From Eledone cirrhosa (taxonomy: Eukaryota): DNA of 64,000 bases. This document shows positions 35,033 to 36,499 of the stretch, piece by piece; the first letter of the stretch is position 1, and every line of letters begins with the position of its first letter. Location of the stretch: contig OZ024747.1 of the NCBI GenBank assembly GCA_964016885.1, positions 51,460,001 to 51,524,000 on the forward strand, read 5' to 3'. Below the pieces are notes generated by a model, which was not told the origin of the DNA, ran no database searches, and worked only from the letters and a program-made list of their open reading frames with translations. A program made the position numbers and the translations under genes.

Positions 35033-35713
35033 ATATATATATATATATATATATATATATATATATATATATATATATATATATATATATTGCAAATGGG
35101 TTACATATGAAACCCATTTGCAACTCCGCAGCGCCCTTATTATCATATTTACACATATTTTTTCCTCTGCTGCTACACCGTCTTTTTCGTTCTATGTATC
35201 TTTACCCTTTCTAGCAGTCTCTCTTTCTCTGTTAGCCTCTTCCTCACCCTTCACTCACTCATTCTATGTCACCACCTCTCCTCCTCCTCCTCTTTCTTCC
35301 CGTTTGACCTGTGAGTAACTCTTTTCTCTCACATTCTCGGCCAAGCTGGTCGGAATTTTTTCTCTCTCGTCTACGATTTCACAGAACTTATGTTTACCGA
35401 ATTCGCAGACCAGACCTCTTCTTCCTCCCGTTAGACCTGTGCGAAATTCCTTCCTTGCTCACATTTCAACCAGGTTTGATGGTCTTTATTCTCTCGTTCA
35501 CGATTTCACCGAACTTAAATTCATAGAAATCTGGGACTTGTCTTCTTCTTCCTCACTTTCTGTTGCCTCACCATTTTGTTTGTTTACCCTCGCGTCCCCT
35601 TTATTTACGTGTCCCAACGACTTTTTTAGGGCGATTTCGCCCTACTCTGGGCAGCGTGTATATTAGCTTTCTCTCTATCCATGAGGTTAGATGTGTAGTA
35701 AACAGAATCCACA

Positions 35714-35788
35714 TTTGCTGACTGATGAACCTGTGGCTGTTAAACTGCACATTTCTGTGGGGAAACGAACTTGATTCGTATCAGCAAA
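35714..35788 (+). ncRNA. Canonical type I hammerhead ribozyme, fully paired
   Basis: TTTGCTGA-CTGATGA-A-CCTGTGG..CTGTGGG-GAAA-CGAA(CTTGA)TTCG-TA-TCAGCAAA. Stem I is a perfect 8 bp and stem III is 4+1 bp. Predicted cleavage after GUA at 35780. Confidence 0.88.
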
Positions 35789-36499
35789 CTTATAGTTATA
35801 AGGTTGGTAATTTAAAACTGTACTTCAGAGATTTGATTCTGACTTAGGTTTTTTTTCTATTTAATTGCTAAACCTGTAGATATTGTTTTCGATACAGTAA
35901 CGGTAAAAATCACTTGTAATAATTCTTTCCACACATCTCACTGTGTAACACACTTCTATTTGTGTAATATATTTGTATCTGAGCTCAGAAGAAAATTCTC
36001 TATTCTTCTTTGAGCTAATATTATTATTATTACTGTGAACTGCTGAATACTCTAAATTCTGATCCTAGTATATATATATATATATATATATATATTATAT
36101 ATATATATATATATATATATATATATATATATATATATATATATATATATATATATATATATATATATAAATATATATATATATATATATATATATATAC
36201 ATACATATACGTATATATACATATATATACATACGATATATTAATAAATGGAAACTATATTTATAAAACCATATTTAATTCATTATGCATATTTCAAGGA
36301 CACCAAGTCAAATTATGGTGCGCTTTCATCAGATAAAATATAATATAGATCAGTTTTATAAATAAATATTGACATACCCTTAAAGAATGCGACCATTTCT
36401 GTTGGAAGCTCCCGGATAGTGGGGTTATTAAATTTATTTACTCTATTATGCAAATTAGTGTCGGATATGTTTAAATCACAGTAGATTTAAAATAGGCTG

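Follow-up and report, generated by a model that had tools for sequence, protein, structure and literature searches.

The stretch of the Eledone cirrhosa genome analysed here (hereafter the window) comprises 64,000 nucleotides of contig OZ024747.1 (positions 51,460,001 to 51,524,000), and its interval 35033-36233 is a join of two repeats. A (TA)n target tract (35033..35089) is followed by an inverted piece of a first repeat, family A (35090..35112, minus strand, 100% identical to monomer positions 1-23), and by the CT-rich body of the same family on the plus strand (35111..35629, 97% identical to approximately positions 11-532 of its 622-nt tandem monomer). At the A/B junction lies an 8-nt inverted remnant of the start of a second repeat, family B (35627..35634, minus strand), with 3 nt in common with the end of A; next come a family B retrozyme copy with one hammerhead only (35633..36069, plus strand, monomer positions 1-440 of 546) and a right-hand (TA)n target tract (36070..36233), recognised like the left one by sequence and repeat inspection. 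A preliminary description of this DNA had taken 35090-36069 for one TA-flanked unit of about 1 kb. (TA)n is indeed present on both sides of the block, yet the block itself is two unrelated repeats. When its 980 bases were searched against the 3.0-Gb genome, matches ended at query position 538 and the remainder had separate matches; mapping on the tandem monomers (622 nt for A, from locus L007; 546 nt for B, from L037) gave inverted A1-23, then A1-530, then B1-440, and a pattern spanning the A/B junction had a single match in the whole genome. The ~1-kb stretch is a one-off chimera of truncated family A and family B copies. Such a junction would result from template switching in the course of insertion and likewise from a deletion that joined two adjacent insertions. 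In contigs from two sequencing runs of unknown kind, A and B each run into their own sequence at this point and none of those listed bridges it, which is uninformative on the junction.

The 13-bp hairpin that opens the block (35090-35102 / 35111-35123) is present as first described but, being the reverse complement of A 1-23 joined to a forward copy, it is an insertion or inversion scar and not a feature of the unit or the family. Both this hairpin and the CT-rich body, which had been assigned to the hammerhead unit, belong to family A, a different repeat. The family A copy in the window lacks A533-622, the region that bears hammerhead blocks in scrambled order: at L007:2055-2120 (family A approximately 555-615) a substrate strand with a UA site is followed by GAAA and then by CTGATGA, with matching short stems I and III. 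The ends of family A copies lie at two sites 47 nt apart.

Other repeats surround the locus. At 34805-35032 another repeat between (TA)n tracts opens with a long inversion hairpin; similar sequence occurs beside L042, L056 and L137 and at window positions 31650-32050 and 32600-32900. Broken Hydra-like Penelope elements with minimal hammerheads occupy 36233-37635 and 27666-29330, and minimal hammerheads in the window include those at 36332 (minus), 39422 (plus) and 62806/62878; one minimal Hydra hammerhead pattern has >10,000 forward matches in the genome. The window also holds a 35-bp tandem array of 102 copies (16924-20511, 93% match) and a broken non-LTR retrotransposon with a zf-RVT domain (40518-42477, minus). 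Elsewhere in the genome, Penelope fragments with a CxxC linker and a separate minimal hammerhead were seen at L093:4570-6101 (minus) and L086; by their motifs we take these to be of a Neptune-like clade, and Pfam gave a sub-threshold GIY-YIG match in one Neptune-like piece.

The hammerhead and its stem II

Within the family B copy, CUGANGA, GAAA and a UH triplet follow one another in type I order at 35714-35788 of the plus strand. Stem I has eight Watson-Crick pairs between TTTGCTGA (35714..35721) and TCAGCAAA (35781..35788); the core CTGATGA (CUGAUGA) lies at 35722..35728 and GAAA at 35762..35765; stem III is a CGAA/TTCG hairpin with a 5-nt loop (35766-35769 / 35775-35778); and the GTA (GUA) triplet (35778-35780) puts the predicted cleavage between 35780 and 35781. 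All of these elements had been recognised beforehand, and each was found at the position originally given. A descriptor made of the core, a stem I of at least 7 bp and a stem III of at least 3 bp matched once on the two strands of the window and never in 100 locally shuffled windows. Among family B copies found by DNA similarity the core is intact in 22 of 28, and across 41 aligned copies stem I is 96.6% and stem III 99.5% paired; stem I has one covarying pair, its outer pair changing from U-A to C-G in 6 of the 41. Core departures amount to 7/308 in young copies against 271/7444 elsewhere, barely lower. Judged by its sequence, 35714-35788 is a real, though non-canonical, type I hammerhead, and since stem III is a real hairpin, invariant in 28/28 copies, activity as a monomeric ribozyme is plausible.

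It is in stem II that the earlier label of a canonical, fully paired hammerhead fails: no Rfam hammerhead model matched at the gathering score or at E up to 5, and the stem II then proposed is unsupported. The stem II region (35729..35761) starts with A35729 opposite G35761, seen by folding and alignment; this A-G mismatch occupies position 10.1-11.1, which is paired in 7 of 41 B copies. Two CC/GG pairs follow (35730-35731 / 35759-35760), kept in 40 and 41 of the 41 copies, and enclose a 27-nt loop II (35732-35758), in which 35732-35752 pairs with the leader described below and 35753-35758 forms a return linker. This site does not show the canonical form of stem II, which has about 4 bp and a purine-pyrimidine pair at 10.1-11.1; as far as conservation indicates, stem II is CC/GG only. 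When a G-C version of stem II was sought (pattern GS...SC), all 100 matches listed were the abundant Hydra minimal hammerhead.

The preliminary description had instead drawn a canonical nested hammerhead with a G-U-rich stem II of seven pairs and monomer activity independent of any leader. These pairs can be drawn in the window copy and are 80.5% paired across the 41 copies, and Penelope hammerheads are known with one additional unpaired base on the 5' side of stem II (PMC4209133). However, the stem comes at +1.0 kcal/mol with a pair probability of 0.00 in all four contexts folded, none of its seven pairs is changed on both sides in the 41 copies, its first (closing) pair is broken in 33 of them, and seven other families keep CC/GG and leader pairing instead. 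We regard the nested model as very unlikely.

Predicted pairing between the leader and loop II

The 23 nt that immediately precede stem I (35691..35713, plus strand) are complementary to loop II and form the leader strand of a predicted pseudoknot helix, P0. The two strands make 19 pairs in three segments (leader positions 35691-35699, 35701-35705 and 35709-35713), worth -18.8 kcal/mol as a hairpin. P0 adjoins stem I with zero gap on its leader side and the CC pair on the other, and involves no nucleotide of the core or of stems I-III. Because it crosses stems I and II, it would be a pseudoknot if it coexists with them. Nearest-neighbour folding, which cannot represent pseudoknots, pairs the leader with loop II at a probability of 0.97-0.98 and yields P0 without stem I; the segment 35690-35810 includes the leader. 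In a crude straight-helix model the 6-nt linker is too short when all 19 pairs are formed (59 Å versus 41-46 Å), and opening two or three distal pairs suffices, at a cost of +1.9 to +5.5 kcal/mol.

Covariation supports this pairing within family B. Forty-three family B copies were collected and two with interrupted leaders (L067 and one L074 arm) dropped; in the remaining 41, P0 is 93.4% paired and 6 of 20 pairs are changed on both sides, and the covariation score of the whole structure was reached in 0/500 shuffles, relatedness of the copies being ignored. A further 40 copies were selected for loop variation from 100 B matches listed and fetched before their leaders had been seen. Here the duplex of each leader with its own loop averaged -18.6 kcal/mol, against -16.3 (sd 0.36) for swapped loops, and swapped loops were as good as the own pairs in 0/5000 permutations, again with relatedness ignored. 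The proximal P0 pairs 1-4 hold in 40, 33, 39 and 39 of these 40 copies and pairs 5 and 6 in 28 and 16, the search pattern behind the set having fixed three of the first four loop letters. Loop II and an extension of stem I are thus joined in family B by a predicted helix of at least 4 bp with covariation.

Family B and the Penelope footprint

A tight family B motif has 281 exact matches in the genome, against 0 for its reversed control. B monomers stand head to tail with one hammerhead each, have no ORF and are 35% GC (below 45%); tandem monomers each with a type I hammerhead were found at L037, L048 and L051, and L105 has four hammerheads in a second family, D. At the family level, B is by these sequence traits a non-LTR retrozyme. 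The suggestion of a retrozyme-like element therefore stands for the 3' part of the block, family B, with its 546-nt tandem monomers and absence of any coding link, and not for the family A part. The alternative suggestion, the 3' end of another PLE family, does not survive: in the loci examined, no Penelope ORF adjoins this hammerhead type. The window locus, B1-440, holds one hammerhead and not the two consecutive ones taken in a preprint to mark an active copy. Having a single ribozyme, this copy cannot release unit-length RNA, and, fused to a family A fragment, it is most likely a dead-end insertion.

No autonomous parent carrying this hammerhead was found in the loci examined. Among 108 locus records that bear the pattern, with flanks of 1.5-4 kb (a few from the same place), Penelope coding sequence lies upstream without a microsatellite in between only at L189; the ORF check used two Penelope clades as queries and covered about one tenth of the matches. 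L189 was rejected as a parent, its hammerhead being minimal and the pattern match due to chance, and so, when checked, was L103, where two D copies lie 2.7 kb apart. A Helitron reading of the CTAG-T end was discarded as well, this end being one of two fixed sites inside the tandem monomer.

Family B copies sit in (TA)n, and 59 of 65 B ends abutting (TA)n fall at monomer position ~346 or 440; where a locus has arms on both strands, one of each fixed end is used in 18 of 22 cases. In family D, 39/42 ends lie at two fixed sites and 14/16 two-armed loci use one of each. The marks of Penelope-type insertion are thus all present: two fixed 3' ends delimiting a tail, an inverted 5' arm and a microsatellite target. 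In the window copy this tail spans 35979..36069 (plus strand), between the short end at 35978 and the long end at 36069-36072, and opens with the hairpin GCTCA...TGAGC (35983-36015). Main arms exceed one monomer in 23/46 B loci. Among the opposite arms, 23 begin at a fixed end; seven of these cross the predicted cleavage site and one stops within 5 nt of it. The template was therefore probably circular, or else a multimer that had not been cut.

The genome contains autonomous elements (L132/L133) with the DKT, CxCX5C linker, CxxC and CxH motifs of the Hydra clade; Pfam returned no family for the Hydra fragments. Tail length is 88-90 nt in the Hydra elements, 94 in B and 88 in D, and an RCTC...GAGY hairpin opens the Hydra tail and is present in B and D (shuffle frequency 0.002 and 0.010) as well as in a second Hydra-like family. 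From the like tail length and the short hairpin, and not from shared ancestry, we infer that Hydra-clade elements are the likely partner that mobilises family B.

Related repeat families

Looser genome patterns, with 1014 matches (control: 4) and 2011 overlapping matches (control: 143), brought to light families D, E, F, G, I, J and K. The seven have in common CTGANGA-N-CC, a 27-32-nt loop, GG-N-GAAA and a hairpin stem III, with leader and loop letters that differ. The leader-loop duplex is better than with shuffled loops (p<=0.05) in 30 of 36 family rows and in 0 of 6 chance matches. In sixteen representatives chosen afterwards the helix begins 0-3 nt from the CC pair and comprises 15-27 pairs, with a return linker of 3-8 nt in most of them; family J has an almost continuous helix, and the linker left by the best duplex shrinks to 1-4 nt in some families. 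Stem I lengths were obtained by automatic detection in families B, D, E, G and J only (not F2, I and K). Family D taken alone is 91.5% paired, with covariation not above shuffles (134/500), in an alignment of 22 of 28 rows from which six with interrupted leaders had been left out.

Families B, D, E, F, G, I and J have common motifs outside the ribozyme and therefore look like one old superfamily. In one alignment of such copies (A3: L037, L105, L151, L157, L161, L169, L170, L176 and L178), the motifs upstream are a second GCTC...TGAGC hairpin, GGCTGCYATTTCTAGC at ~140-150 nt and CACGTG or CATGTG at ~70-95 nt upstream of the ribozyme; they may represent an internal promoter. The window copy lacks both this second hairpin and GGCTGCYATTTCTAGC.

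Several matches fell outside these families. Family H (4 loci) matched the pattern without having a stem I and was used as a control; judged by eye from its motifs, it presumably lies in Helitron helicase coding sequence. L104 is a false long-loop match adjoining inverted sequence. In viral contigs, at least 120 matches included three with stems I and III, in the IMG/VR contigs L199, L210 and L267; all three are the same ordinary type I hammerhead, whose stem II is long and bulged and which shows no leader pairing. At L189:4003-4100 a Hydra-like family has a minimal hammerhead with a two-pair CC/GG stem II and a 5-nt loop, and may resemble the ancestral state from which the long-loop type arose.

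Discussion

Starting from the observed sequence anatomy, repeat families, two fixed insertion ends, complementarity and covariation, we lean with modest conviction towards a type I hammerhead in a truncated B copy in which stem II is reduced to two pairs, the loop II-leader pseudoknot replaces the usual loop-loop contact and the monomer can cut itself. During transcription the leader-loop hairpin would form first, its 18-nt loop holding the 5' strand of stem I, the core and CC; stems III and I would form next, and the last two or three P0 pairs would fray, or the helix bend, as GG-GAAA docks. Tandem transcripts would then be cut to unit-length RNA and circularised, as shown for other retrozymes, and a Hydra-clade Penelope protein may bind the tail hairpin and, starting at two sites, copy the circle or an uncut multimer by reverse transcription into nicked (TA)n. 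P0 spares the nucleotides of the core and stems and adjoins both stems, as an activating contact would. An active fold is favoured by the covariation of P0, by its recurrence in seven families and by the crude model, where opening two or three pairs is enough; the linker that is too short for a full straight helix and the shuffle-level covariation of family D count against it.

The same tether can be read the other way. P0 might be a brake, a rigid strut whose short tether keeps GG-GAAA from CC so that circles or multimers stay uncut until opened, for example by the Penelope protein. Such a role would fit the stability of P0 (-18.8 kcal/mol on its own, whereas nested hammerhead folds all come to about -10), the short linkers for a 15-27-bp helix and nearly unbroken helix of family J, and the opposite arms that cross the predicted site. 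In the anole, moreover, a Penelope hammerhead depends on protein for cleavage, and the RNA that serves as template is mainly uncut (PMC11167929). But one would expect inhibition to involve pairing with the core or the stems, both of which P0 avoids in all eight families, and re-ligated circles account just as well for arms that cross the predicted site. Transcription always produces the leader ahead of the core, so that a conserved ribozyme must cut with the leader present or be helped; under a pure brake, each cleavage event would require a helper. We consider a pure brake doubtful. Equally tentative is a combination of the two roles, in which a superfamily of animal retrozymes would have replaced stem II by a ~20-bp leader-loop helix acting as scaffold and switch: the proximal turn would activate, and the distal helix and tether would keep circles uncut until opened, possibly by the Hydra protein.

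Two further readings would remove the function or the independence of the ribozyme. Inversion scars are common in these repeats, and the false long-loop match at L104 lies beside inverted sequence, so the leader-loop complementarity could be a functionless by-product of insertion inversions. Against this, the leader is present in every monomer of the tandem arrays, is interrupted by conserved internal loops, covaries with the loop and keeps its register across eight families; the by-product reading is largely refuted by these patterns, and we give it hardly any credence. The hammerhead region might alternatively be the 3'-terminal pseudo-LTR of an autonomous Penelope family, with B as its truncated debris. 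Retrozymes have been proposed to derive from pLTRs (10.64898/2026.07.22.740005), and B bears the Penelope insertion footprint, yet the head-to-tail B monomers have no ORF and the one record of 108 with Penelope coding upstream, L189, is a chance match with a minimal hammerhead. This origin seems improbable to us.

Both the element class and short hammerhead pseudoknots are already known, which limits the surprise of the finding; the new part, as far as sequence comparison goes, is the long leader-loop helix. The comparisons that follow draw on the accessible text of the papers cited. In a hammerhead with a one-pair stem II, a 6-bp pseudoknot was required for fast cleavage (Perreault 2011, PMC3088659), and about 40% of hammerheads were predicted there to use a pseudoknot; highly repetitive type I examples were left out of the stem-length analysis. 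Those pseudoknotted hammerheads of types I-III are alike in that a Watson-Crick helix from the stem I side to the stem II side replaces the tertiary contact and that stem II can shrink to one pair, but the pseudoknots described for them have 4-6 bp; the helix predicted here belongs to a eukaryotic mobile repeat, is divided into several segments that add up to 15-27 bp, and has only a short linker for the return. The PK hammerhead 8YDC (Zhan et al. 2024, PMC11300833) likewise has helix II replaced by a loop II region pairing 5' of helix I, with 6 bp to the loop of an extra hairpin (helix IV), whereas in family B the partner is a linear leader that runs straight into stem I, and the CC/GG pairs persist. 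Type I hammerheads with a 1-bp stem II or none cleave slowly in vitro (PMC13725137), and what is accessible of PMC7936874, PMC13725137 and PMC4209133 describes short or absent stems II and short pseudoknots, not the long leader-loop form. The family B hammerhead is not of the non-circularly permuted kind, as that is presented in PMC10085705. The literature searched, which did not extend to subscription papers, figures or the PMC7229834 supplement, gave no description of a long leader-loop helix.

Metazoan non-LTR retrozymes (Cervera and de la Pena 2020, PMC7229834; Li, Clavereau and Pollet 2026, 10.64898/2026.07.22.740005) resemble family B in their non-coding, low-GC tandem monomers with one type I hammerhead each, their coexisting Penelope elements and their many dispersed monomers and partial dimers. 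The 546-nt monomer of B exceeds the 170-400 nt of PMC7229834 and lies inside the 51-972 nt of 10.64898/2026.07.22.740005. The usual form has a 4-bp stem II with loop-loop contacts, in contrast to the two pairs and the 27-32-nt loop predicted to pair with a leader here; the mussel ribozymes are said to be without the usual contacts, and a similar leader-loop fold is possible in them. Eight of nine Xenopus retrozyme dimers showed no cleavage (10.64898/2026.07.22.740005). With the Hydra-clade PLEs, for which a one-ended tail and an inverted arm were described (Craig et al. 2021, PMC8557442), and with anole Poseidon, where the tail was tied to two internal reverse-transcription starts (Frangieh 2024, PMC11167929), B shares (TA)n targets, an inverted 5' arm, partial tandems and a one-ended tail matching two reverse-transcription start sites. 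It differs from the former in encoding no protein and in a tail of ~90 nt, not 30-40 (PMC8557442), and the Hydra elements of the E. cirrhosa genome have minimal hammerheads with a palindromic stem III, unlike B.

In summary, our results bear on how retrozyme and Penelope RNAs can be cut from long transcripts and yet persist as intact templates. The explanation commonly given is a weak stem III, functional in dimers only. Here stem III is strong and the vestigial stem II is linked to a predicted long helix upstream, which suggests that the problem is solved differently, in a hammerhead class with about 1000 motif matches in one genome that goes undetected by Rfam, and eight natural sequence sets with ready compensatory mutants are at hand for testing the leader-loop helix. 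If the scaffold-and-switch role were true, these repeats would contain a natural regulated ribozyme, missed by Rfam models and by descriptors demanding a normal stem II, that times when a mobile RNA circle is cut.
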